Below, in pieces: positions 6,364 to 56,566 of a stretch of DNA of 64,000 bases. A model generated the notes under the pieces. It made no database searches, was not told the DNA's origin, and saw only the letters and a program-made list of their open reading frames with translations. This DNA is from an uncultured bacterium (GTDB taxonomy: Bacteria; Omnitrophota; Omnitrophia; Omnitrophales; Aquincolibacteriaceae), in assembly GCA_964606385.1 (NCBI GenBank), contig CAZSFZ010000009.1, positions 5,762 to 69,761 on the forward strand, given 5' to 3'. How positions within the stretch are numbered: position 1 is the first letter of the stretch; each line of letters opens with the position of its first letter. The position numbers were made by a program, and so were the translations under genes.

Positions 6364-7791
6364 ATGACGAAGAAACTCTTTAAGATAGAGGCCATGATCC
6401 AGAAGATCCTTTCCCTTGTCCTGCCGGTCATGCTTTTGGCCGTGCAACCGGTGTTCGCTGAAACGCCCGTCACGACGGATCAGACATGCATCGAAAAGCT
6501 GACCTTCCTTGATTTTTACCAAAAAGTTCTCGCGCATTATCCTGCACTAAAAAAACAGTACGAGAAGATCGCGCAGGCGAAGGCCCAGCGCAATCTCGCG
6601 ATATCCGACCTTTTTCCGCACGTCCAGGGCGTGTTCTCCACCGTGACGACCGATGACCCGGTCGGCGTTTTCGGGGACCTTTTGCGCCAGCAAAAATTCA
6701 CCCAGAATGATTTTTCGCTGGAGTCGCTCAACCGGCCCGATGCCCGCACGAATTACCACGTGGGGATCGAAGGGGAGATGCTGCTTTTTGATTCTTTTAA
6801 TACGATCTCAAAGATCCGCTCGGCCCGCCGGATGGTCAAGTCCGCCGACCTTGAAGCGGATTTCACGGAAATGGAGGCGGGGATCGTGGCGCTTGAAAGT
6901 TACCTCGGGCTCCTTCTCGCGCAGGAGAACTTCGATATCGTCTCGGGCGTCAAATCCGAAAGCGATCAGGATATCCGGCAGGCCGAAGACCTGAAGGAAA
7001 AAGGGATGATCCTCGGGGCGGATTATTACGCGGCCCGCGTGATCGCGGCTTCGATCGAACGCGAATACCACCGTTCGGAGGCCCTCCTCAAAAGCTCCCG
7101 CATGCTCATGAATATCCTGATGGGCGCGGACCCGGGCCTCGCGTGGGACCCCGTGGGAAAACTTCCCGAGATCAAACGGGAAGCGGTCGACCTCCGGGTC
7201 TGGCTCGCGCAGTCCTACCAGCAACGGAAAGACCTTGCCGCGATGGACCAAATGGTGGACGCGGCGCGCATCGAATCGTTCCGCCAGAAAACATCCTTTC
7301 TCCCAAAATTCTACGGTTTCGGAAGTCTTAATGAAGACGCGAACACCTGGCGCTCGGGCGGCGAGAATTTCACGGTGGGGTTCAAGGGGACCATGGATTT
7401 TCTTGATCCCGCGCTCCCGGGAAGGATCCAGAAGGCCAAGCATCAATATGAAGAGCTCAAGGCCGACCGGCAGGCGCTCCGGGACGCGATCGTCAAGGAC
7501 CTGGTGCTGGAATTGGCCCGGTATGAATCCGCGACCGCCGACCAGCCCGTCCTGAAACAGGCCGCGCAGGACGCGCAGCAGGCGAGCGAACAGACGGCCA
7601 AGCTTTATCAGGAGGGACGGAAATCCATCGCGGACCTTCTGGAGATCCGCCGCCTGCATCTGGACACCACTTCCGGTTTCCGGAGCCTCCTTATGGCGCT
7701 GGAGCTGGAGTACGCCAAATTATTATTCCTTTCCGGCCAGCTTGATGAAAACGGGCTTCGACAAGTCAACGAACGATTCAATAACCAGTAA
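6364..7791 (+). CDS. TolC-family outer membrane efflux protein (OMF)
   Basis: 475 aa with signal peptide; two repeat halves of coiled-coil/beta-barrel type. Upstream divergent promoter contains TTGACA. Confidence 0.75.
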   Translation: MTKKLFKIEAMIQKILSLVLPVMLLAVQPVFAETPVTTDQTCIEKLTFLDFYQKVLAHYPALKKQYEKIAQAKAQRNLAISDLFPHVQGVFSTVTTDDPVGVFGDLLRQQKFTQNDFSLESLNRPDARTNYHVGIEGEMLLFDSFNTISKIRSARRMVKSADLEADFTEMEAGIVALESYLGLLLAQENFDIVSGVKSESDQDIRQAEDLKEKGMILGADYYAARVIAASIEREYHRSEALLKSSRMLMNILMGADPGLAWDPVGKLPEIKREAVDLRVWLAQSYQQRKDLAAMDQMVDAARIESFRQKTSFLPKFYGFGSLNEDANTWRSGGENFTVGFKGTMDFLDPALPGRIQKAKHQYEELKADRQALRDAIVKDLVLELARYESATADQPVLKQAAQDAQQASEQTAKLYQEGRKSIADLLEIRRLHLDTTSGFRSLLMALELEYAKLLFLSGQLDENGLRQVNERFNNQ

Positions 7792-7829
7792 CACCTACGA
7801 GGTGTAGAGACACCACACCTCGTAGGTGT
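7791..7829. repeat. Perfect 15-bp-stem inverted repeat between the OMF stop and the RND RBS
   Basis: acacctacgaggtgt-agagacacc-acacctcgtaggtgt. No T-run follows, and an RBS (gagaagg) plus ATG at 7848 come next. Confidence 0.5.
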
Positions 7830-7847: not shown

Positions 7848-10800
7848 ATGTCCCAACATCATCATTCCGATATCATCAGCGGGATCGTCAGTTATTTCGC
7901 CAAATCCAAGATCACGCCGCTCATTATCGCGGTGTCGATCGTGCTCGGCGTTTTCGCGGTCATGAACCTGCCGCGGGAGGAAGAACCGCAGATCTCGGTG
8001 CCGATGTTCGATATTTTCGTGTCCTATCCCGGCGCGGATTCCAAAGAAGTCGAGCAACGGATCGTCACACTTGGAGAGAGAAAGCTCTGGGAGATCCCCG
8101 GCGTGGAATACGTGTACTCCACGATCGAGCCGGAAGGCGCGCTTATCATCGTGCGGTTCAAGGTCGGCGAAGACCCCGAAAAGAGCCTGATCAAGCTCTA
8201 TACCAAAGTTTATTCCAATCTCGATTTCCTGCCTCAGGGCGCGACCCAGCCTTTCATTAAAGTCCGTTCGATCGACGATGTGCCGATCCTGACGCTGACC
8301 TTCCATTCCAAGGACAAGGATCCGGTGACGCTGCGGCGCACGGTCGCCAATATCCAGAACGTCGTGAATGCCATTCCGGATGTGTCCGAGACCCACATCA
8401 CGGGCGGGCGCAAACGCCAGTTCCAGGTCTTTTTCGACGAAGAAAAGCTCAGGGCCCGTCTTTTGAACCCTCTCGAGATCGCGCAGATCATCCGTTCGGC
8501 GAACGTGAAACAGGCCGCCGGTCATCTGGAAAGATCGCCGGAACTTGAATCGGTGGAAGCGAATTCGTTTTTCCGAACGAAGTCCGACCTTGAAAACCTC
8601 GTGGTCGGCGTCAGCGCCGGAAGCGTTGTGACCCTGAAAGACATCGCGAAGGTCGTTGACGGGCCGGACGAGGAAGAGCGGGCGGCCGGGATCTTCTTCG
8701 GACCTGCGTCGAAGGCCGCGGACAAAGGACCTTTTCAGGCGGTAACACTCTCGATCTCAAAACGCAAGGGCGCCAATGCCGCGCATCTTTCGGAAGTGAT
8801 CCTGCATGCCATCAAGGAATTGCCGGAATCAACGCTTCCAAAGGATATCGAAATGACCGTGACGCGGGACTACGGCGAGACCGCCAAAGAAAAATCCGAC
8901 GAACTGCTTTTTCATATGGCGATTGCGGTCTTCGGCGTGAGCCTTTTGATCGCCTGGTCGCTCGGGCTCCGGGAATCGGGGGTCGTGGCGATTGCGATCC
9001 CGATGACGCTCGCCTTGACGCTCGCCACCTTTTATTTTCTCGGGTTCACGCTGAACCGCATCACGCTTTTCGCGCTGATCTTTTCGATCGGTATCCTGGT
9101 CGATGACCCGATCGTGGATGTCGAGAATATCGTGCGCCACCTCCGGCTTCCCAATAACAAAGGGAAATCCATCCTGGATATTACGATCGAGGCCGTGAAT
9201 GAGGTCCGCAGCCCCTTGATCCTCGCGACGCTTACGGTGATCGCGGCGATCCTGCCGATGGCTTTTGTGAGCGGGCTCATGGGGCCTTACATGCGGCCGA
9301 TCCCGATCGGGGCGAGCGCGGCGATGATGTTCTCGATGTTCGTGGCTTTTGTCGCGACCCCCTGGGCCGCGTATCAGATCCTGGGGAAAGCCTTCGCGCA
9401 AGGGAAACTCAAGGCACACCATGAAGGGGAAAAGGAAGATTTTCTTACGCGTCTTTACCGCTCGTACATGAACCCGCTGATCTTTAATCCCAAGGTCCGT
9501 AAATTTTTTCTGATCGGACTGGGCGGCGCCTTGATCCTCGCGATGGCCCTCGTGCCGCTCAAATTGGTCCGGATGAAGATGCTGCCCTTTGATAACAAGA
9601 ACGAGTTCCAGGTTATCCTCAATATGCCGGACGGCGCTTCGCTTGAAGCGACGCAAAAAGCGATCACCGAGATCGCGGATTATCTCGTGACGGTCCCCGA
9701 GGTGAAGGATATCGAGATGTATGTGGGGTCTGCCGCGCCTTACAACTTTAACGGGCTGGTTCGGCATTATTTCCTCCGTTCGAAGCCGCATCAGGCCGAC
9801 CTTCAGGTGAATCTTGCCGGGAAACATGACCGCAAACGGCAAAGCCACGACATTGCTAAAGCGGTGCGTCCGAAGATCCATGAGATCGTGGAAAAATACA
9901 AAGGTCATGTCCAGGTGGCGGAGGTCCCGCCAGGTCCGCCGGTCCTTTCAACCCTCGTGCTTGAGATCTACGGCCCCACGCTCGCCGGACAGCAAGAGCT
10001 TGCCAAGCAGATCGAAGGCCTGCTGGCCTCGGCGGAAGGCGTGACCGATATCGATACCTATGTCCGGGAGCCCGAGAAACTCGCGCGGCTGAGGGTCAAT
10101 ACGGAAAAGGCGTCGCTGAACGGCATTCCCGTGGATCAGATCGCCACGGCCATCACGGCCGCCGTAGGCGGGAAGACCGTGGACCTCGCGCACTTGTCGG
10201 AGGAATACGAACCCGTGGAGATCCTCCTGAGGCTGCCGAAAGAAAAACGCGCCGGGCTTGATAGTGTGCTCAATATGACGCTTCTGTCGCGTTACGGTAA
10301 TCCGATCCCGGTCCGCGAACTGGTCCATGTCGAGAAGGACCGGAAGGACCTTGCGATCTATCACAAGAACCTGATGCGCGTTTCCTATGTGATCGCGGAC
10401 GTGGCGGGGAAATACGAAAGCCCGGCGTACGCGATCCTGAAACTGAAAAAAGAGATCGCGCAGATCCCGGCGCCGGAAAATCATGAAGGACAAAGAACGG
10501 TCGACCAGATCTTTAACGGCCAGCCCAAAACGGCGGACCGCTGGACCTTGAAATGGGACGGGGAATGGCAGATCACGTACGAAGTGTTCCGGGACCTCGG
10601 GATCGCGTTCGCGTTCGTCCTGCTCCTGATCTACGCGCTCGTGGTCGGCTGGTTCCAGTCGTTCAAGACGCCCTGGATCATCATGCTGCCGATCCCGCTC
10701 ACGTTGATCGGGATCCTGCCGGCCCATTGGCTCGGCGGTGTTTTCTTCACGGCGACTTCCATGATCGGCATGATCGCCGGCGCGGGGATCGTGGTGCGGA

Positions 10801-11087
10801 ATTCGATCATCCTGGTGGATTTTATCGAACTGCGTCGCGCCGAGGGCATGCCCCTCGAGGAAGCCGTGATCGACGCGGGCGCGAAGCGTTTCAGGCCGAT
10901 GCTTCTGACGGCCGCGGCGGTCGTGGTCGGGGCTTCGGTGATCCTCTTCGATCCGATCTTTCAGGGATTGGCCGTGGCGCTGATGGCGGGCGAGATCGCT
11001 TCGACGATCCTGTCGCGCACGGCAGTGCCGGTTTTCTATTACATGATGGCTAAAAAAGAAAAAATCTCGGGGAACGTGGAACGTTGA
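7848..11087 (+). CDS. RND-superfamily efflux permease (AcrB/CzcA-type)
   Basis: 1079 aa with 12-TM/2-loop architecture. 'GILVDDPIVDVENIVRH' motif. The C-terminal 6 aa (SGNVER) are encoded by a GGAACG heptamer repeat. Confidence 0.85.
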   Translation: MSQHHHSDIISGIVSYFAKSKITPLIIAVSIVLGVFAVMNLPREEEPQISVPMFDIFVSYPGADSKEVEQRIVTLGERKLWEIPGVEYVYSTIEPEGALIIVRFKVGEDPEKSLIKLYTKVYSNLDFLPQGATQPFIKVRSIDDVPILTLTFHSKDKDPVTLRRTVANIQNVVNAIPDVSETHITGGRKRQFQVFFDEEKLRARLLNPLEIAQIIRSANVKQAAGHLERSPELESVEANSFFRTKSDLENLVVGVSAGSVVTLKDIAKVVDGPDEEERAAGIFFGPASKAADKGPFQAVTLSISKRKGANAAHLSEVILHAIKELPESTLPKDIEMTVTRDYGETAKEKSDELLFHMAIAVFGVSLLIAWSLGLRESGVVAIAIPMTLALTLATFYFLGFTLNRITLFALIFSIGILVDDPIVDVENIVRHLRLPNNKGKSILDITIEAVNEVRSPLILATLTVIAAILPMAFVSGLMGPYMRPIPIGASAAMMFSMFVAFVATPWAAYQILGKAFAQGKLKAHHEGEKEDFLTRLYRSYMNPLIFNPKVRKFFLIGLGGALILAMALVPLKLVRMKMLPFDNKNEFQVILNMPDGASLEATQKAITEIADYLVTVPEVKDIEMYVGSAAPYNFNGLVRHYFLRSKPHQADLQVNLAGKHDRKRQSHDIAKAVRPKIHEIVEKYKGHVQVAEVPPGPPVLSTLVLEIYGPTLAGQQELAKQIEGLLASAEGVTDIDTYVREPEKLARLRVNTEKASLNGIPVDQIATAITAAVGGKTVDLAHLSEEYEPVEILLRLPKEKRAGLDSVLNMTLLSRYGNPIPVRELVHVEKDRKDLAIYHKNLMRVSYVIADVAGKYESPAYAILKLKKEIAQIPAPENHEGQRTVDQIFNGQPKTADRWTLKWDGEWQITYEVFRDLGIAFAFVLLLIYALVVGWFQSFKTPWIIMLPIPLTLIGILPAHWLGGVFFTATSMIGMIAGAGIVVRNSIILVDFIELRRAEGMPLEEAVIDAGAKRFRPMLLTAAAVVVGASVILFDPIFQGLAVALMAGEIASTILSRTAVPVFYYMMAKKEKISGNVER

Positions 11088-11131
11088 ACGAAAAAGCATT
11101 TACGTTCACCGTTTCCCGTTAGCCGTTCTCC
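11069..11131. repeat. GGAACGN/NCGTTCC heptamer-array palindromic element (copy A)
   Basis: ggggaacgtggaacgttgaacg ... cgttcaccgtttcccgttagccgttctcc. Overlaps the RND stop codon. Confidence 0.6.
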
Positions 11132-11153
11132 GAGTTCTCAAAGGAGAGCTTCT

Positions 11154-11363
11154 ATGACCATAGAAAAATCGATCCCTATCATGGCCGGGTCTTTTATCCT
11201 GATCAGCCTTGCGTTGGCGGTCTGGGTGAACAAGTGGTGGCTTCTCTGGACGGCCTTTGTCGGCGTGAACCTGGTCCAGTCCGCGATCACGGGGTGGTGC
11301 CCCGCGGAAGGCCTTCTTAAAAAACTCGGCATGAAAAACTGTTGCCCCAGCCCTGAGAAATAA
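11154..11363 (+). CDS. DUF2892 (YgaP-like) small membrane protein
   Basis: 69 aa, 2 TM, conserved 'GWCPAEGLLKKLG' (GxCP motif). Confidence 0.6.
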   Translation: MTIEKSIPIMAGSFILISLALAVWVNKWWLLWTAFVGVNLVQSAITGWCPAEGLLKKLGMKNCCPSPEK

Positions 11364-11393
11364 TCGCATCACGCCATTTCCTAGGAGGTGTTT

Positions 11394-13303: not shown

Positions 13304-14752
13304 ATGGCCGATCTTTGCTCCCTGACTCTCAAAGAAGCGATTGACGTCGCGAAAAAAGACGGTGCGCAGCCGATCCTGGATGCTTTCGCGAAGCGCGCCG
13401 AGGCGCTTAATCCGACGATAAACGCGTTCCTTCGTTTTGAGCAACCCATCCGACCCCGGGGGTCGGATAAATCCGACCCCGGGGGTCGGATGGGGGAGGG
13501 GGCGCTTCACGGGGTGCCCATTTCGATCAAGGATAATATCTGCATGGAAGGCAAGGAAGTGACATGCGCGTCGAAGATCCTGGCCAAGCACGTGCCGCCG
13601 TATAACGCGACGGTCATCACCAAATTGAAAGATGCGGGCGCGACGCTTTTCGGCCAGTGCAACATGGACGAATTCGCGTTCGGTTCCTCGTGCGAAACCT
13701 CGGCCTTCGGGCCGTGTAAAAATCCCTGGGACCTGACGCGCGTGCCCGGCGGCTCTTCCGGCGGCTCCGCGGCCTCGGTTGCGGCGGACATGACACTTGC
13801 CGCGCTCGGGAGCGATACCGGCGGCTCCATCCGTCAGCCCGCCGCGCTTTGCGGCGTGGTCGGCGTGAAACCCACTTACGGACGCGTGTCGCGCTACGGC
13901 CTTATCGCGTTCGGTTCGAGTTTTGACCAGATCGGCCCCATCACAAAGACCGTAGAAGACGCGGCGATCCTGATGAATGTGCTGAGCGGCCATGACCCGA
14001 AAGATTCTACCTCCGCGCCGCAGAATGTCCCTGATTTCACGCAAGCGCTCAAGCGGGACGTCAAAGGCCTGAAGATCGGTCTGCCGAAGGAATATTTTAT
14101 CGAAGGCATCGACCCCGAGATCGAAAAAAGCGTGCGCGCGGCAGCGGACCTTTATAGGAAACTCGGCGCGGAGATCAAGACGATCTCTCTGCCTCATACC
14201 GAATACTCCGTCGCGGTCTACTATATTGTCGCCGTCGCGGAGGCAAGCTCGAACCTCGGCCGGTTCGACGGCGTAGAGTACGGCCTGCGTGTACCCACCA
14301 AAGATCTTCGCGAGATGTATTTTGAGACACGCGACCAGGGGTTCGGACAGGAGGCCAAGCGCCGCATCCTGCTCGGCACTTTTGTGCTTTCCGCGGGTTA
14401 TTATGAAGCTTACTACTTAAAGGGGCAGAAGGTCCGCACGCTCATCCGCCAGGATTTCGAGAAGGTGTTTAAAGAAGTGGATGTGATCCTTTCGCCGACC
14501 TCGCCTACACCAGCCTTCAAGATCGGCGAAAAGGCCGCGGACCCGATCGCCATGTACTTATCTGATATTTTTACAATCCCGGCGAACCTTGCAGGGATCC
14601 CCGCGATGTCCGTGCCGTGCGGTTTTACCTCAGGCGGTCTGCCCATCGGCATGCAGCTCATGGCCCGCCCGTTCGACGAGGCGACCATGCTCCGTGCTGC
14701 TTATGCGTTTGAACAAGAGGCTGGAATCCACAAAAAGAAACCGGTTCTTTAG
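13304..14752 (+). CDS. gatA: Glu-tRNA(Gln) amidotransferase subunit A
   Basis: Amidase signature 'GGSSGGSAASVAA', 'HGVPISIKDNI'. ATG at 13304 is 1 nt after the gatC stop. Confidence 0.9.
   Translation: MADLCSLTLKEAIDVAKKDGAQPILDAFAKRAEALNPTINAFLRFEQPIRPRGSDKSDPGGRMGEGALHGVPISIKDNICMEGKEVTCASKILAKHVPPYNATVITKLKDAGATLFGQCNMDEFAFGSSCETSAFGPCKNPWDLTRVPGGSSGGSAASVAADMTLAALGSDTGGSIRQPAALCGVVGVKPTYGRVSRYGLIAFGSSFDQIGPITKTVEDAAILMNVLSGHDPKDSTSAPQNVPDFTQALKRDVKGLKIGLPKEYFIEGIDPEIEKSVRAAADLYRKLGAEIKTISLPHTEYSVAVYYIVAVAEASSNLGRFDGVEYGLRVPTKDLREMYFETRDQGFGQEAKRRILLGTFVLSAGYYEAYYLKGQKVRTLIRQDFEKVFKEVDVILSPTSPTPAFKIGEKAADPIAMYLSDIFTIPANLAGIPAMSVPCGFTSGGLPIGMQLMARPFDEATMLRAAYAFEQEAGIHKKKPVL
13448..13491. 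repeat. Tandem copy of a 21-nt perfect palindrome inside the gatA coding region
   Basis: atccgaccccgggggtcggat-aa-atccgaccccgggggtcggat. It is read in-frame as 'IRPRGSDKSDPGGRM'. Confidence 0.6.
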
Positions 14753-15588: not shown

Positions 15589-17040
15589 ATGAAATTTGAA
15601 CCAGTCATCGGACTAGAAGTCCACGTGCAATTAAAAACAAAGTCAAAACTGTTCTGCTCGTGCTCGACGGAATTTGGGGCGGAGGGGAATAGCCACACAT
15701 GTCCCGTGTGCCTCGGCTGGCCGGGGTCGCTTCCGGTGGTGAATGAGACGGCGCTGAAGCTCGGGATCAAGGCTGGGCTCGCGCTCAACTGTAAAGTGGC
15801 GGAGCGCCTCAAGTTCGACCGGAAGAATTATTTCTATCCGGACCTTCCCAAGGCTTATCAGATCTCCCAGTACGATATGCCGGTGAATGGGAAGGGGTTT
15901 GTTGATGTTGAAACGAAAAGCGGGGAACGTGGAACGGGGAACGTGGAACGAAAGCGAATCGGGATCACGCGCGCACATTTGGAAGAAGATGCGGGAAAAC
16001 TTCTGCATGAAGGGATCTCGGACGGAAGCTTGGTCGATTACAACCGTGGCGGCGTGCCGCTCCTTGAGATCGTTTCTGAACCGGATATCCGCTCGCCCCA
16101 GGAAGCGTACGATTACCTTAGCGCGCTCAAAGCGATCTTGCAATACGTAGAAGTGAGCGACTGTGATATGGAAAAGGGAAGCCTCCGCTGCGACGCGAAC
16201 GTATCCGTACGGCCGGTCGGTCAGGAGAAATTCGGGACGAAAGTTGAGATCAAGAACCTGAACTCGTTCAAGATGGTGCAGAAAGCCATTCAGTACGAGA
16301 TCGAACGCCAGACGCGGGCGCTCGAGGACGGTGAAACGATCGTTCAGGAAACGCGGCTCTGGAATGACGCCAAGGGCACGACGTTCTCCATGCGTTCCAA
16401 AGAGGAAGCCCACGATTACCGTTATTTTCCGGACCCGGACCTTGTAGCGTTCACGCTTTCCAGAGAACTCGTGGACGGGATCAGGAAGACCCTGCCGGAA
16501 TTGCCGCTCGAGCGCGCGAAGCGGTTCATGAAAGATTACGGCCTTTCCGAATACGACGCTTATGTGCTGGTGCAGGAAAAGAAACTCGCGGAATATTTCG
16601 AGTCCTGCGTGCGCGAGGGCGCCGCGGCAAAGCTCGCGAGCAACTGGATCCAGAATGAACTTCTCGCGTTATTAAATGAGAAGAATATCGCGATCGAAAC
16701 ATGCCTTGTTTCTCCCCATGCGCTGGCCGGGTTGATCCGTCTTGTCGAGCAGGGGACGGTGAGCGGCAAGACTGCCAAGGATGTGCTTCAGGAAATGGCG
16801 GCCACGGGCAAAGCGGCCGACGTGATCGTCAAAGAAAAAGGTCTGACGCAAGTTTCGGATACCGGTCTGATCGAGAAAACGGTTGAGAAAGCGATCGCGG
16901 CGAATCCCACGGCGGTCGCGGAATTCAAAGCTGGGAAACAAAAAGCCTTGGGTGCGCTTGTAGGTTTCGTCATGAAAGAGACCGGAGGCAAGGCGAATCC
17001 GAAGCTTGTGAATGAAATACTCATTCAAAAGCTCGGCTAA
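15589..17040 (+). CDS. gatB: Glu-tRNA(Gln)/Asp-tRNA(Asn) amidotransferase subunit B
   Basis: 'MKFEPVIGLEVHVQL', 'KRIGITRAHLEEDAGK'. Contains an in-frame heptamer-repeat insertion at 15922-15950. Confidence 0.9.
   Translation: MKFEPVIGLEVHVQLKTKSKLFCSCSTEFGAEGNSHTCPVCLGWPGSLPVVNETALKLGIKAGLALNCKVAERLKFDRKNYFYPDLPKAYQISQYDMPVNGKGFVDVETKSGERGTGNVERKRIGITRAHLEEDAGKLLHEGISDGSLVDYNRGGVPLLEIVSEPDIRSPQEAYDYLSALKAILQYVEVSDCDMEKGSLRCDANVSVRPVGQEKFGTKVEIKNLNSFKMVQKAIQYEIERQTRALEDGETIVQETRLWNDAKGTTFSMRSKEEAHDYRYFPDPDLVAFTLSRELVDGIRKTLPELPLERAKRFMKDYGLSEYDAYVLVQEKKLAEYFESCVREGAAAKLASNWIQNELLALLNEKNIAIETCLVSPHALAGLIRLVEQGTVSGKTAKDVLQEMAATGKAADVIVKEKGLTQVSDTGLIEKTVEKAIAANPTAVAEFKAGKQKALGALVGFVMKETGGKANPKLVNEILIQKLG
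15922..15950. repeat. GGAACG heptamer array (4 units) embedded in-frame in gatB
   Basis: ggggaacgtggaacggggaacgtggaacg, read as 'GERGTGNVER'. Its 15-mer ggggaacgtggaacg is identical to copy A at the RND 3' end. Confidence 0.65.
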
Positions 17041-17125
17041 CGTGGAACGGCAAACGATGAACGCAAAAAAGAAAAATAATAAGCGTTTTCGTTCCCCGTT
17101 CCCCGTTCCCCGTTCCCCGTTTTTT
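17038..17125. repeat. GGAACGN/NCGTTCC heptamer-array palindromic element (copy C) with (CGTTCCC)x4 and a terminal T-run
   Basis: cgtggaacggcaaacgatgaacgc-A-rich loop-cgttttcgttccccgttccccgttccccgttccccgtttttt. Overlaps the gatB stop and the tsaD 5' end. Confidence 0.6.
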
Positions 17126-18124
17126 ACCCTCGGCATAGAAACATCGTGTGATGAAACCTCCTGTTCCGTTCTTAAGGATAAAGACACGATCCTTTCCAAT
17201 GTTGTTTCCTCGAGCCTTTTCCGGCACAAAAAATTCGGCGGTGTGGTGCCCGAGATCGCCTCGCGGCATTGCATGGAACAGATCCAGTGTGTTTTTGAGG
17301 AAGCACTTCGACAGGCTCAGTGCAAGGCGCGGGATTTGGATTTAATAGCGGTGACGCAGGGGCCGGGGCTCATCGGTTCGCTCCTCGTCGGCGTGTCGTT
17401 TGCCAAGGCGCTGGCTTATCAACTAGGCATCCCAATTGTTGGCGTCAATCATATGGAAGCGCACCTCGTGGCGAACTTCTTTGGCCAGCCGGAACCCAAG
17501 CGATATATCGGCCTGCTCGTGTCGGGCGGTCACACCATGCTGACGTTCTGTGAAAAAGGGAAGATCCATATTTTTGGCGAAACCGTGGATGACGCAGTTG
17601 GCGAGGCCTATGACAAAGTCGCTAAGATCATGGGCCTCAGTTATCCCGGAGGCCCCATCATCGACAAGTTCGCGAAGGAAGGAAATTCGCGGGCGTTCCA
17701 ATTCACAAAGCCGAAGCAGGACGACCGGTTCAGTTTCAGCTTCAGCGGCGTCAAGACCGCGGTGCTGTACCAATTCCACGACCCTAAAACGGGAAAGCCG
17801 AATCCCCAGGCGCCTTCTGTGAAAGATATGGCGGCGAGTTTTCAGCACGCGGTGATCGGGTGGCTTGTCGAAAAAGCGCTTGATGCCTGTGAATTTAAAC
17901 ACGCGGCTGATATCGTGGTCGGCGGCGGCGTCAGCGCAAATTCTTATTTGCGGGAAAAACTCACGCGCGAAGCGGCGGCGCAGGGGATCAAGGTCTGGTT
18001 CCCGCCGTTCGTCTTAAGCACGGACAACGCGGCGATGATCGCGCGGCGGGGATTTGAGCTTTACCAACAGGGAAAACGGTCGAAACTTAATATGACCGGA
18101 GATCCGGCACTACAAATAAAATAA
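17057..18124 (+). CDS. tsaD: tRNA N6-adenosine threonylcarbamoyltransferase
   Basis: 'LGIETSCDETSCSV', 'HMEAHL'. The only in-frame ATG (17057) puts 22 repeat-encoded residues (RFRSPFPVPRSPFF) before the conserved core, so the start is uncertain. Confidence 0.75.
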   Translation: MNAKKKNNKRFRSPFPVPRSPFFTLGIETSCDETSCSVLKDKDTILSNVVSSSLFRHKKFGGVVPEIASRHCMEQIQCVFEEALRQAQCKARDLDLIAVTQGPGLIGSLLVGVSFAKALAYQLGIPIVGVNHMEAHLVANFFGQPEPKRYIGLLVSGGHTMLTFCEKGKIHIFGETVDDAVGEAYDKVAKIMGLSYPGGPIIDKFAKEGNSRAFQFTKPKQDDRFSFSFSGVKTAVLYQFHDPKTGKPNPQAPSVKDMAASFQHAVIGWLVEKALDACEFKHAADIVVGGGVSANSYLREKLTREAAAQGIKVWFPPFVLSTDNAAMIARRGFELYQQGKRSKLNMTGDPALQIK

Positions 18125-18214
18125 GTATCAGCATGTCAGAGTATCAAAGTGTCACAACACAGAGCCTGATACTCTGACACCTTGACACTGTGACACGCAT
18201 TTAGGGGAGGTCTT

Positions 18215-19637: not shown

Positions 19638-19736
19638 ATGCCTTGGGCTCGTAAACAGCGCAAGAAGAAGATGAACAAGCATAAGCGCAAGAAAAAACTG
19701 CGCCGGAACCGTCACAAGAAAAAAGACTGGTCCTAG
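19638..19736 (+). CDS. bS22-like (AURKAIP1/COX24-domain) small basic ribosomal protein, 32 aa
   Basis: MPWARKQRKKKMNKHKRKKKLRRNRHKKKDWS matches the 'KRRKRMxKKKHRKLLRRTR' pattern of bS22. AAAGGAG RBS 8 nt upstream. A terminator follows immediately. Confidence 0.5.
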   Translation: MPWARKQRKKKMNKHKRKKKLRRNRHKKKDWS

Positions 19737-19737
19737 C

Positions 19738-19761
19738 AAAATGCCGCTTTCGCGGCATTTT
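19738..19761 (+). terminator. Rho-independent terminator after the bS22-like ORF
   Basis: aaaatgccgc-tttc-gcggcatttt: perfect 10-bp stem (6 G/C base pairs plus A/T flanks) and a T-run. Confidence 0.6.
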
Positions 19762-19763
19762 GC

Positions 19764-19831
19764 GTGAAACGGGGAACGGTAAGCGGGAAACGCAATGTTT
19801 GGCGTTCCCCGTTGATCGTTTCCCGTTTTTT
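19764..19831. repeat. GGAACGN/NCGTTCC heptamer-array palindromic element (copy D)
   Basis: gtgaaacggggaacggtaagcgggaaacgc-aatgtttgg-cgttccccgttgatcgtttcccgtttttt. Confidence 0.55.
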
Positions 19832-19871: not shown

Positions 19872-20747
19872 ATGAAAGAAATCGTTCTTCAGAGTCCTGC
19901 CAAGCTGAACCTGCACCTGCGCATCCTCGGGAAGCGCCCGGACGGGTACCATGAGCTCCTGACGCTTTTTCACCGCATTTCGCTCGTGGACACGATCGTG
20001 ATCCGTAGGCGTCCCGCGGGTTTCAATCTCGCCACGAATCTTCCTTCCCTGGAAACGGGAGAGGGGAATCTCATTACCAAGGCCTATCGCCTGCTTCAGG
20101 CTAAATTCCCAAGTTTGGGCGGGGTCTCCGTGAGGCTAACCAAGCGTATTCCCCTGGGCGGCGGGCTCGGCGGGGGGTCCAGCAACGCGGCGCATTTCCT
20201 GCTGGGGATGAAGAAACTTTTTGGCCTTAAGATCTCCCCAAAAGAGCTTTTAGCTATGGGGAAGAAGCTGGGCGCGGATGTTCCTTTTTTCCTTCTGGAG
20301 GCCCGGCAGGCCATGGCGTGGGGGATCGGGGAGAAGCTCCGCAAGGTGCCCTGCAAGCGCCGGCTCGGGTTCCTGTTGCTTGTGACCCATCAAGGACTTA
20401 ACACGAAAAAAGTGTACCAAAAACTCGCCTGGAAGGGCCGGCCCCTTTCCTTGACAAAGGAGATGCGTATTGCTAAAATTCTGCGCTTTTCTCTTGAAAG
20501 CAAGAGGATCCGGGAAGCGGCATCCTGCGCGCGGAATGACCTGGAAAGACCGGCGTTTTGCATGATGCCGGCCGTTCCGAAAGCCATCAAGGCCCTCAGG
20601 GGCTTGGGCGCGCCTTTCGTTCTGATGAGCGGGAGCGGGGCCACGGTCTTCGCAGCGTTCTCCAGCCGGAAAGAAGCATTCGACCTATCGAAGAGATTGA
20701 AAGCAGTTCCCTTTCCTTTTCGCAAGGTGATTTGTCACTCATACTAG
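19872..20747 (+). CDS. ispE: 4-diphosphocytidyl-2-C-methyl-D-erythritol kinase
   Basis: 'PAKLNLHLRI..KRPDGYHEL', 'PLGGGLGGGSSNAA' GHMP-kinase motifs. Confidence 0.85.
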   Translation: MKEIVLQSPAKLNLHLRILGKRPDGYHELLTLFHRISLVDTIVIRRRPAGFNLATNLPSLETGEGNLITKAYRLLQAKFPSLGGVSVRLTKRIPLGGGLGGGSSNAAHFLLGMKKLFGLKISPKELLAMGKKLGADVPFFLLEARQAMAWGIGEKLRKVPCKRRLGFLLLVTHQGLNTKKVYQKLAWKGRPLSLTKEMRIAKILRFSLESKRIREAASCARNDLERPAFCMMPAVPKAIKALRGLGAPFVLMSGSGATVFAAFSSRKEAFDLSKRLKAVPFPFRKVICHSY

Positions 20748-21103: not shown

Positions 21104-21174
21104 TGCCCCGTGGTGAAATGGTATCACACTGCCCTTTGGAGGCAAGGTTCCTGGTTCGAGCCCAGGCGGGGCAG
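21104..21174 (+). tRNA. tRNA-Gln (anticodon UUG)
   Basis: Hand-folded cloverleaf. 7-bp acceptor tgccccg/cggggca with U1:A72 and discriminator G73 (GlnRS identity elements). D-stem gtga/tcac. Anticodon loop ctTTGga. T-arm cctgg-ttcgagc-ccagg. CCA is not encoded. Confidence 0.7.
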
Positions 21175-56440: not shown

Positions 56441-56566
56441 TAAATTCGAAATACGAAGCGCGAAATCCGAAACAAAATTTAAACCCGAATTTCTTAATGT
56501 CTCAAGCGTTTTAAATTTTGGTAATTCGAATTTGTTTCGAGTTTCGGATTTAGGATTTCGGATTTT
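56441..56566. repeat. AT-rich ~125-bp quasi-palindromic element built of CGAAAT/ATTTCG heptamer-like units
   Basis: Left arm ttcgaaatacgaagcgcgaaatccgaaacaaaattt. Right arm aaattcgaatttgtttcgagtttcggatttaggatttcggatttt. Lies between lpxB start and the upstream gene end. Confidence 0.5.

Follow-up and report, generated by a model that had tools for sequence, protein, structure and literature searches.

The 64-kb window analyzed here, a stretch of contig CAZSFZ010000009.1 from an uncultured bacterium of the phylum Omnitrophota, carries a short tandem array of seven-base repeats inside gatB, where it is translated as part of the protein. The array, GGGGAACGTGGAACGGGGAACGTGGAACG, is 29 nt long, occupies positions 15922-15950 of the plus strand and lies entirely within the gatB open reading frame (ORF) at 15589..17040. 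Three features describe the locus:

15589..17040, plus strand: gatB coding sequence, 483 amino acids, intact, the host of the array (from the ORF list, Pfam and structure matches)
15922..15950, plus strand: four seven-base units, GGGGAAC GTGGAAC GGGGAAC GTGGAAC, followed by G; a lone G-rich arm
15919..15954, plus strand: codons for SGERGTGNVERK, residues 111-122, placed at a beta-hairpin tip by AlphaFold2 and alignment gaps

The gatB ORF matches the Pfam families GatB_N (412 bits, 1.3e-123) and GatB_Yqey (179 bits, 5.3e-53) as well as the solved GatB proteins of Aquifex, Thermotoga and Staphylococcus, with E-values of 4e-163 to 9e-153 (4e-163 for Aquifex 3h0l_B), and all conserved GatB motifs are retained. 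Tandem Repeats Finder reports the array as period 7 with 3.9 copies (15924-15950) and also as period 14 with 2.1 copies at 100% matches. Its reading frame gives S-G-E-R-G-T-G-N-V-E-R-K (residues 111-122), with the array supplying most of SGERGTGNVERK. Because seven is not a multiple of three, the units are read in successive codon phases, and three units make up one 7-residue period. Located 333 nt from the gatB start and 1090 nt from its stop, the array is not extragenic. Chance does not explain it: the two-unit pattern GGAACGKGGAACG, allowing at most one mismatch, is found 11 times in the window, where chance predicts 0.43 matches, and the full 29-mer, allowing at most three, is found twice, where chance predicts 0.00. 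A search within gatB found no reverse-complement partner arm, and the RNA fold of the array region was no better than that of shuffled sequence (z = +0.6). The canonical quadruplex motif, (G3+ N1-7)x3 G3+, is absent from the window array, in which alternate units carry GTGG.

Alignments to the three solved bacterial GatBs open a gap of 7-8 residues exactly at the array, which is preceded by ...G(F/Y)(V/I)D(V/I)E... and followed by KRIGITRxH(L/M)EEDAGK. The AlphaFold2 monomer model, built from a 54-sequence alignment, has a mean predicted local distance difference test (pLDDT) score of 79.9, with strands at residues 103-110 and 119-135 and coil at residues 111-118, where pLDDT drops below 50 at 113-116. 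In this model, the array encodes a beta-hairpin tip within the cradle domain of GatB. This tip lies away from the 3-10 turn that discriminates tRNAs, a recognition element at S. aureus GatB residues 183-186 that reads the first tRNA base pair (PMC2811023).

Related repeats are found elsewhere in the window. Arrays of GGAACGK (GGAACG followed by G or T) occupy four sites, namely the gatB copy and three inverted pairs in which an A/T-rich spacer separates the G-rich from the C-rich arm. All three pairs are at gene 3' ends or intergenic, and within the window each begins at, or no more than about 30 nt away from, an upstream stop codon:

11068..11132, plus strand: full copy at the 3' end of the RND pump gene; left arm 11068-11090 (three GGAACGK-type units), spacer 11091-11102, C-rich right arm 11103-11132
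17041..17125, plus strand: full copy abutting the gatB stop codon, with a degenerate left arm (17041-17063), an A-rich spacer (17064-17089), the right arm CGTTCCC x 4 (17090-17119) and T6 (17120-17125)
19766..19831, plus strand: intergenic full copy; left arm GAAACGG GGAACGG TAAGCGG GAAACG, spacer, right arm CGTTCCC CGTTGAT CGTTTCC CG, T6

As RNA, the first copy folds into a hairpin of -29.4 kcal/mol (z = -4.0) with no T-run, the second into one of -27.3 kcal/mol (z = -4.7) followed by T6, and the third, which is terminator-like and sits between a small ORF and the ORF at 19872..20747, into one of -39.3 kcal/mol (z = -5.7). The paired copies would fit long-stem intrinsic terminators or 3'-end stabilizers. 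A simple terminator scan missed the long-loop hairpins of this family, and an Rfam scan recognized none of these repeat elements, its only hit being a tRNA at 21104-21174. The AcrB-type RND pump gene (7848-11087, Pfam ACR_tran) terminates inside the left arm of its copy, with its final residues SGNVER and its stop codon (11085-11087) encoded by the repeat. Its orthologs in two related genomes, L081 and L082, terminate within arrays of other units (here and below, L numbers label related genome loci and P numbers homologous GatB proteins, as assigned in the analysis). The 16-mer CGGGGAACGTGGAACG occurs exactly in both the gatB array and the pump-gene copy (11068-11083). The first-pass annotation of this DNA had proposed a seven-base tandem array translated in frame in gatB, placed in a variable segment before KRIGITRAHLEEDAGK, reduced to a single arm and belonging to one family with the repeat at the RND gene 3' end. 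These proposals hold: the array lies in an intact 483-residue ORF, the alignments to solved GatBs locate it in that segment, gatB contains no reverse-complement arm, and the exact 16-mer ties the two copies together.

The same hairpin tip varies widely among related GatBs. About half of the closest Omnitrophota homologs share a uniform native tip, ...ETKTADGKMIERKIGITR, and by our reading of the loops about 31 of the 63 closest Omnitrophota GatBs with a locatable loop have repeat-derived inserts at this exact position. A metagenome scan with GatB added at least about nine further close relatives. We count at least 10 sequence types in the loop, some of them complete two-arm palindromes, and the following contents illustrate the range:

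L082 (P0044): GGGGAAC x4, with the same family, position and flanks as in the window
L081, the closest relative: GGGACAC x4
L003, L008 and L088: GGGACTC x4
L005 and L167: complete seven-base palindromes with both arms
L002 and L006: a different hairpin of 36-50 nt

Three expectations of the first-pass annotation are thus revised. Other GatBs were said to have no such insert, yet roughly half of those just described do, and L082/P0044 has one of the same family. Only half-elements were thought to be tolerated, yet full two-arm palindromes stand in frame in the loop of L005, L167, P0013 and others. An ortholog alignment was expected to reveal an insertion of about nine residues, but the window protein is 7-8 residues longer than the solved GatBs and only 3 longer than its native-loop ortholog L083/P0007 (ETKTADGKMVEKTIG). 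The latter difference is small because the native tip TADGKMVEK is replaced by SGERGTGN(VERK) rather than added to. The proposed filter for the reading frame did stand, as intact genes have only frame-preserving versions.

L081 retains a recognizable native second half, its EGQNVERKR resembling DGKMVEKT, and its AACGTAGAACGA aligns with AACGTGGAACGA of the window. Because the last array unit, GTGGAACG, aligns with AACGTAGAACG (NVER) of L081, it corresponds to native-derived NVER codons. The five seven-base arrays seen in the GatB loop all have exactly four units, and no one-unit or seven-unit allele was found among 120 homologs. Across these 120 proteins, internal insertions of at least 4 residues cluster at residues 109-121 (about 38 proteins), and only one further site, after residue 343-344, has multiple insertions (7 proteins). 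At 100 more distant GatB loci the loop segment measures 32-33 residues in 78 and at least 41 in only 4, and from this rarity of long loops it follows that the hot spot is specific to this clade. The gatB of L006 has insertions at both sites: an identical 36-nt hairpin, CAGGGACAGGTCCTGAAAAAAGAGGACCTGTCCCTG, occurs twice in frame (~10310-10345 and ~11060-11095), at the hairpin tip and after the residue equivalent to 343, and a longer relative of it lies in gatA of the same genome (9820-9900), between GFTSG and LPIGMQLM.

Repeats in frame within housekeeping genes of the window are not limited to gatB, but also include an insert in gatA and the N-terminus of tsaD:

13448-13491, inside gatA (13304-14752): in-frame insert of two tandem copies of the palindrome ATCCGACCCCGGGGGTCGGAT, translated ..QPIRPRGSDKSDPGGRMGEG..
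17057..18124, plus strand: tsaD (Pfam TsaD, 1.2e-90)

The gatA segment between NAFLRF and LHGVPISIKDN contains in-frame hairpin repeats in most genomes, with different ones in L081, L082, L001, L007, L008 and L087. For tsaD, only one in-frame start precedes the conserved LGIETSCDE, an ATG that falls within the final left-arm unit of the copy at 17041..17125, and the spacer and CGTTCCC x4 arm are therefore translated as an N-terminal extension, MNAKKKNNKRFRSPFPVPRSPFF, before TLGIETSCDE. An orthologous element occupies the gatB-tsaD junction in L081-L083, L001-L003, L005-L008 and L085-L088, and in every genome having it, tsaD starts inside the left arm; Joint Genome Institute gene calls for L081 and L082 place the start at the equivalent ATG. 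In L004 and L084, which lack the element, tsaD starts at a GTG just before PFYTLGIE.

The gatB array is also almost perfectly complementary to the C-rich arm at the tsaD start (17088-17123), 1.14 kb downstream. The duplex of the two in the window has a predicted energy of -57.8 kcal/mol, compared with -25.6 kcal/mol for the C-rich arm and its own degenerate left arm, and the corresponding values in L082 (10182-10217 with 11357-11393) are -73.0 and -26.8 kcal/mol. Neither L081 nor L008 has this long-range complement, and that of L003 is no better than the local left arm.

To follow these repeats between genomes, we compared four orthologous sites: the pump gene 3' end, the gatB loop, the gatB-tsaD junction and a site upstream of the GHMP-kinase gene. 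The sites hold arrays in most genomes, with unit families that vary (GGAACGK, GGATGRC, GGGACTC, GTACGGN, GCGCAAC, GGAGTYC and others). A single family occupies three or four sites in the window, L082, L001 and L003; GGAACGK is found at four sites in both the window and L082, while one unit recurs at four sites in L001 and at three in L003. The loop array and the intergenic arrays belong to the same unit family in the window, L082 and L003. Five unit families are present within 7.5 kb of L167. Across the window and 19 close loci (327 kb) we surveyed 38 seven-base arrays, of which 34 have a CG dinucleotide in the unit, compared with about 36% expected for random seven-base units by our own rough estimate, and most units fit GGNNNNC(G).

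The repeat found at a site need not follow the relatedness of the genomes. By identity of five proteins, L081 is closest to the window (86-96%) and L082 next, yet the window shares its family and spacer with L082 and not with the closer L081, which has a different family and a 29-nt spacer identical to that of the more distant L083 and nearly identical to that of L005. At the loop, the 120-nt flanks of the window and L081 are 91% and 88% identical and the element 48%; for the window and L082 the flanks are 86% and 83% identical and the element 90%. Similarly, P0012 and P0042 have identical loops in proteins only 81% identical elsewhere, and loop type can differ between proteins of about 95% identity, although one such case depends on contig L165, described below. 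Exchange or replacement of loop elements is likely. The array itself would appear to be older than the split from the L082 lineage, judging by the shared family, position and flanks.

Two other accounts of this distribution were rejected. A single clade of insert-bearing GatBs is contradicted by the neighbor-joining tree and by nearest-neighbor identities, both of which mix insert-bearing and native-loop proteins. A recombination tract carrying the element together with its flanks is ruled out, as the 120-nt flanks do not track the affinity of the element. The discordance between loop and protein is not proven recombination, because one key contig, L165 (SRR7151596_199311), joins the sequences of two strains, through either chimeric assembly or recent recombination: the first ~1260 nt of its gatB are 100% identical to L003, and the last ~270 nt with the next spacer are 100% identical to L166.

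The closest described class of repeats is that of the G-rich seven-base repeats of Xanthomonas and Nostoc, which are related to the cyanobacterial STRR repeats. With units of GGGAATC and GGGGAYT, respectively, they show a preference for four units, form convergent inverted pairs and are located just behind ORFs, with 7-11% overlapping ORFs (PMC4692102, Rehm et al. 2015). The Omnitrophota arrays likewise have a seven-base unit opening with a G-run and typically about four units. They too are dispersed, mostly right behind an ORF and often in convergent inverted pairs able to form stem-loops, with relatives carrying them at the same intergenic sites in differing lengths and sequences and a minority overlapping ORFs. 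In contrast to the Xanthomonas and Nostoc repeats, many unit families coexist here, genomes with a protein divergence of only 5-15% have different families at orthologous sites, arrays and hairpins stand in frame deep in essential genes, the window array is unable to form a canonical quadruplex, and the phylum is another one.

Palindromic elements of Rickettsia (Ogata et al. 2000, as summarized in PMC10969869) are similarly dispersed, in frame in unrelated housekeeping genes and translated. Their positions are judged to be compatible with the protein fold; for the gatB array, the monomer model gives a low-confidence hairpin tip. The Rickettsia elements are about 150 bp long with a conserved peptide, unlike the gatB array, a single arm of 28-29 nt whose peptide is set by codon phase; they also differ from the GatB loop, where one site takes at least 10 sequence types, and have no sequence relationship to it. 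By sequence, the gatB array belongs to neither the Xanthomonas/Nostoc nor the Rickettsia family, as it lacks the quadruplex motif of the one and the 150-bp palindrome and conserved peptide of the other.

Three further systems share some of these properties. REP and REPIN sequences, mobilized by REP-associated tyrosine transposases (RAYTs), are short, abundant, hairpin-forming at gene ends and organized in genome-specific families (Bertels and Rainey 2011, PMC3116915), but REPs are extragenic and not built from tandem seven-base units, whereas the gatB copy is intragenic. The TAACTGA direct repeats of marine Beggiatoaceae (MacGregor 2015, PMC4679880) are abundant seven-base tandems beside genes, some overlapping ORF ends and a few inside ORFs. 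They are mostly upstream of starts, direct, of one unit and with forward stops in every frame, whereas the Omnitrophota arrays are G-rich, mostly hairpin-paired downstream of genes and readable in frame. Borg elements also have fast-evolving tandem DNA repeats that are translated into flexible protein segments, and such repeats are described as creating disordered regions in Borg proteins (PMC9879509). The unit of 7 here is not a multiple of 3, and only three-unit steps keep the frame. Our literature search found no paper linking Omnitrophota with heptamer repeats.

Taken together, the array is real and not unique to this genome, and we consider it reasonably probable that it is a passenger copy of the genome's own G-rich seven-base family, which became fixed at a permissive hairpin tip, where it is translated and tolerated and where frame-preserving versions alone are allowed. 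Arrays in this clade normally exist as inverted pairs exactly at gene 3' ends that form long hairpins, often before a T-run. At gatB, a lone four-unit G-rich arm instead occupies the hairpin tip of the cradle domain, taking the place of the native TADGKMVEK, and is simply translated. The tip would act as a permissive site at which selection retains only the frame-preserving versions, and the array would be neutral, of no use to GatB. It could derive from a dispersed copy, transferred by a copying or gene-conversion event that short homology to the native codons had seeded, or from an exchange of the loop segment between related lineages. This passenger interpretation is supported by the family membership of the array, its position at a hairpin tip, the intact gene, the recurrent inserts in the loop and the other essential genes hit.

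Several observations weigh against it. The loop unit differs from that of the nearby intergenic array in L081, L005, L008 and L167. There is no clear target-site duplication at the array, and no mechanism of movement is supported; the flanking direct repeats (GAAACAAA in L008; GAAACRAAAGCG-like, GAAACGAAAAGCG and GGAACGAAAGCG in the window) are at most suggestive, as they match imperfectly and run into the native ET(K) codons, and the gatB copy is without an inverted terminus. A Pfam scan of six nearby ORFs found no element-associated enzyme, with no search aimed at transposases or RAYTs being made. The uniform four units of the five loop arrays could reflect a constraint other than tolerance, and an array boundary overlapping native-like codons fits homology-seeded copying and in-place growth alike. 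The tip would be exposed within the GatCAB complex, to judge from the variability of the loop. Mobility of the arrays is nevertheless plausible.

A first alternative, which we regard as unlikely, is that the array grew in place by slippage or duplication of a native seven-base stretch at the turn, such as GGG GAA CG (Gly-Glu-Arg), and that its family resemblance reflects a genome-wide bias in which seven-base units amplify rather than copying. One unit would then have become four, because only three-unit steps (21 nt) keep the frame in a coding region. The four units of all five loop arrays agree with this, as does, by our reading, the observation that removing three units leaves ETKSGERKRIGITR, a tip like that of solved GatBs (e.g. 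..PNGEKKKVRI.. in Aquifex). The ends of the array also coincide with native-like codons (NVER in the window), at the gatB stop codon the L083 array opens with a unit identical to the GGATAAA of the empty L004 site, and the five unit families of L167 fit local origins as well. Seven-base repeats are moreover reportedly the most abundant longer simple repeats in bacteria and are ascribed to polymerase slippage (PMC4679880). Against in-place growth, the window, L082 and L001 each show one unit at four sites, and L003 shows one at three, which is far beyond chance with at least eight families circulating. One-unit and seven-unit alleles are missing among the 120 homologs, and the exact 14-nt periodicity (GGGGAACGTGGAAC x2) should be unreachable via in-frame intermediates by single slippage steps.

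A more ambitious reading goes beyond the passenger copy, and we offer it only tentatively, as rather unlikely. This clade may hold previously undescribed miniature elements, seven-base-array hairpins at fixed addresses that are overwritten in place by kindred families through targeted copy-and-replace or templated repeat-writing, with the GatB tip repeatedly re-colonized rather than being the relic of one insertion. Such a reading is allowed because the identity of an element is independent of its flanks, one loop holds at least 10 types, and single families occupy three to four sites. If true, the addresses would be the 3' ends of genes together with a small number of permissive loops in essential proteins, with units nearly all containing CG.

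That the array is kept for a function seems improbable to us. It could act as a quadruplex, as a protein-binding site or as a pairing partner that tunes gatB and tsaD, or it could encode a Gly/Arg/Glu-rich loop that aids binding of tRNA or synthetase. Conservation gives this some ground, as the arrays of the window and L082 share family and position and their 90% identity is at least that of the flanks. The four-unit preference coincides with quadruplex formation in the GGGAATC and GGGGAYT repeats (PMC4692102), and the arrays of L082, L003 and L008 fit the G3+ quadruplex motif, but those of the window and L081 do not, for which reason we rejected quadruplex formation as the cause of the four units. 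Pairing with the tsaD C-rich arm, far better than that of its own left arm in the window and L082, does not occur in L081 or L008 and does not surpass the local pairing in L003, and translating ribosomes would be expected to break pairing over 1.1 kb. Loop content is also wholly different among close relatives, about half of which have the native tip, and the encoded peptide is of low model confidence.

We give practically no credence to an assembly artefact or chance low-complexity stretch. The window does come from a metagenome-assembled contig, and L165, a related Logan contig, is chimeric or recombinant, but chance matches to the full array are expected at 0.00. The array is not an assembly artefact, because an independent Logan assembly, that of run SRR15237811, agrees with the window at every position over 3693 nt, array included. 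Its 29 nt are also shorter than one sequencing read, its reading frame is unbroken, and at least five further assemblies, made independently from related genomes, contain in-frame arrays of like kind.

The array in gatB shows that very small repeat elements can reside in an essential translation-fidelity enzyme without breaking it. One loop absorbing many different repeats provides a natural map of insertion tolerance in GatB, and also in GatA. More interesting than the single array is the clade-wide pattern, with GatB and GatA loops as landing pads and families replaced at fixed sites. Within a compact system, it would allow the origin, spread and replacement of seven-base repeats to be studied, a question that Xanthomonas and cyanobacteria also pose. 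It also carries a warning for annotation: loops derived from repeats make proteins look more divergent than they are, and they can mislead both the calling of gene starts, as at tsaD, and phylogenies of metagenome-assembled genomes.

Other repeats were observed in the window. Between two minus-strand ORFs, at 56442-56565, lies a pair from a second seven-base family, whose units are TCCGAAA-like; its arms, AAATTCG AAATACG AAGCGCG AAATCCG and TTTCGAG TTTCGGA TTTAGGA TTTCGGA, are 54 nt apart (RNA fold z = -2.6). A scan of viral contigs for GGAACGK arrays returned nine unrelated direct arrays, mostly close to gene starts, which are ordinary simple repeats and uninformative on the origin of the gatB array. 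Between the outer-membrane factor gene and the pump gene lies an inverted pair, ACACCTACGAGGTGT / ACACCTCGTAGGTGT (7791-7829), whose CCACCTCGTAGGTGG-type hairpin recurs in frame inside gatA of L081, L001 and L007. Directly past the tsaD stop codon there is an imperfect inverted repeat, AGTATCAGCATGTCAGAGTATCA / TGATACTCTGACACCTTGACACT (18124-18189), and a period-8 repeat, TGACACCG x2.8, spans 18175-18196. Finally, a short GC-rich hairpin with a T-run (GCCGCTTTCGCGGCATTTT, 19741-19762) is directly upstream of the palindrome at 19766-19831, and the two form tandem terminator-like structures behind a small basic ORF ending at 19735.

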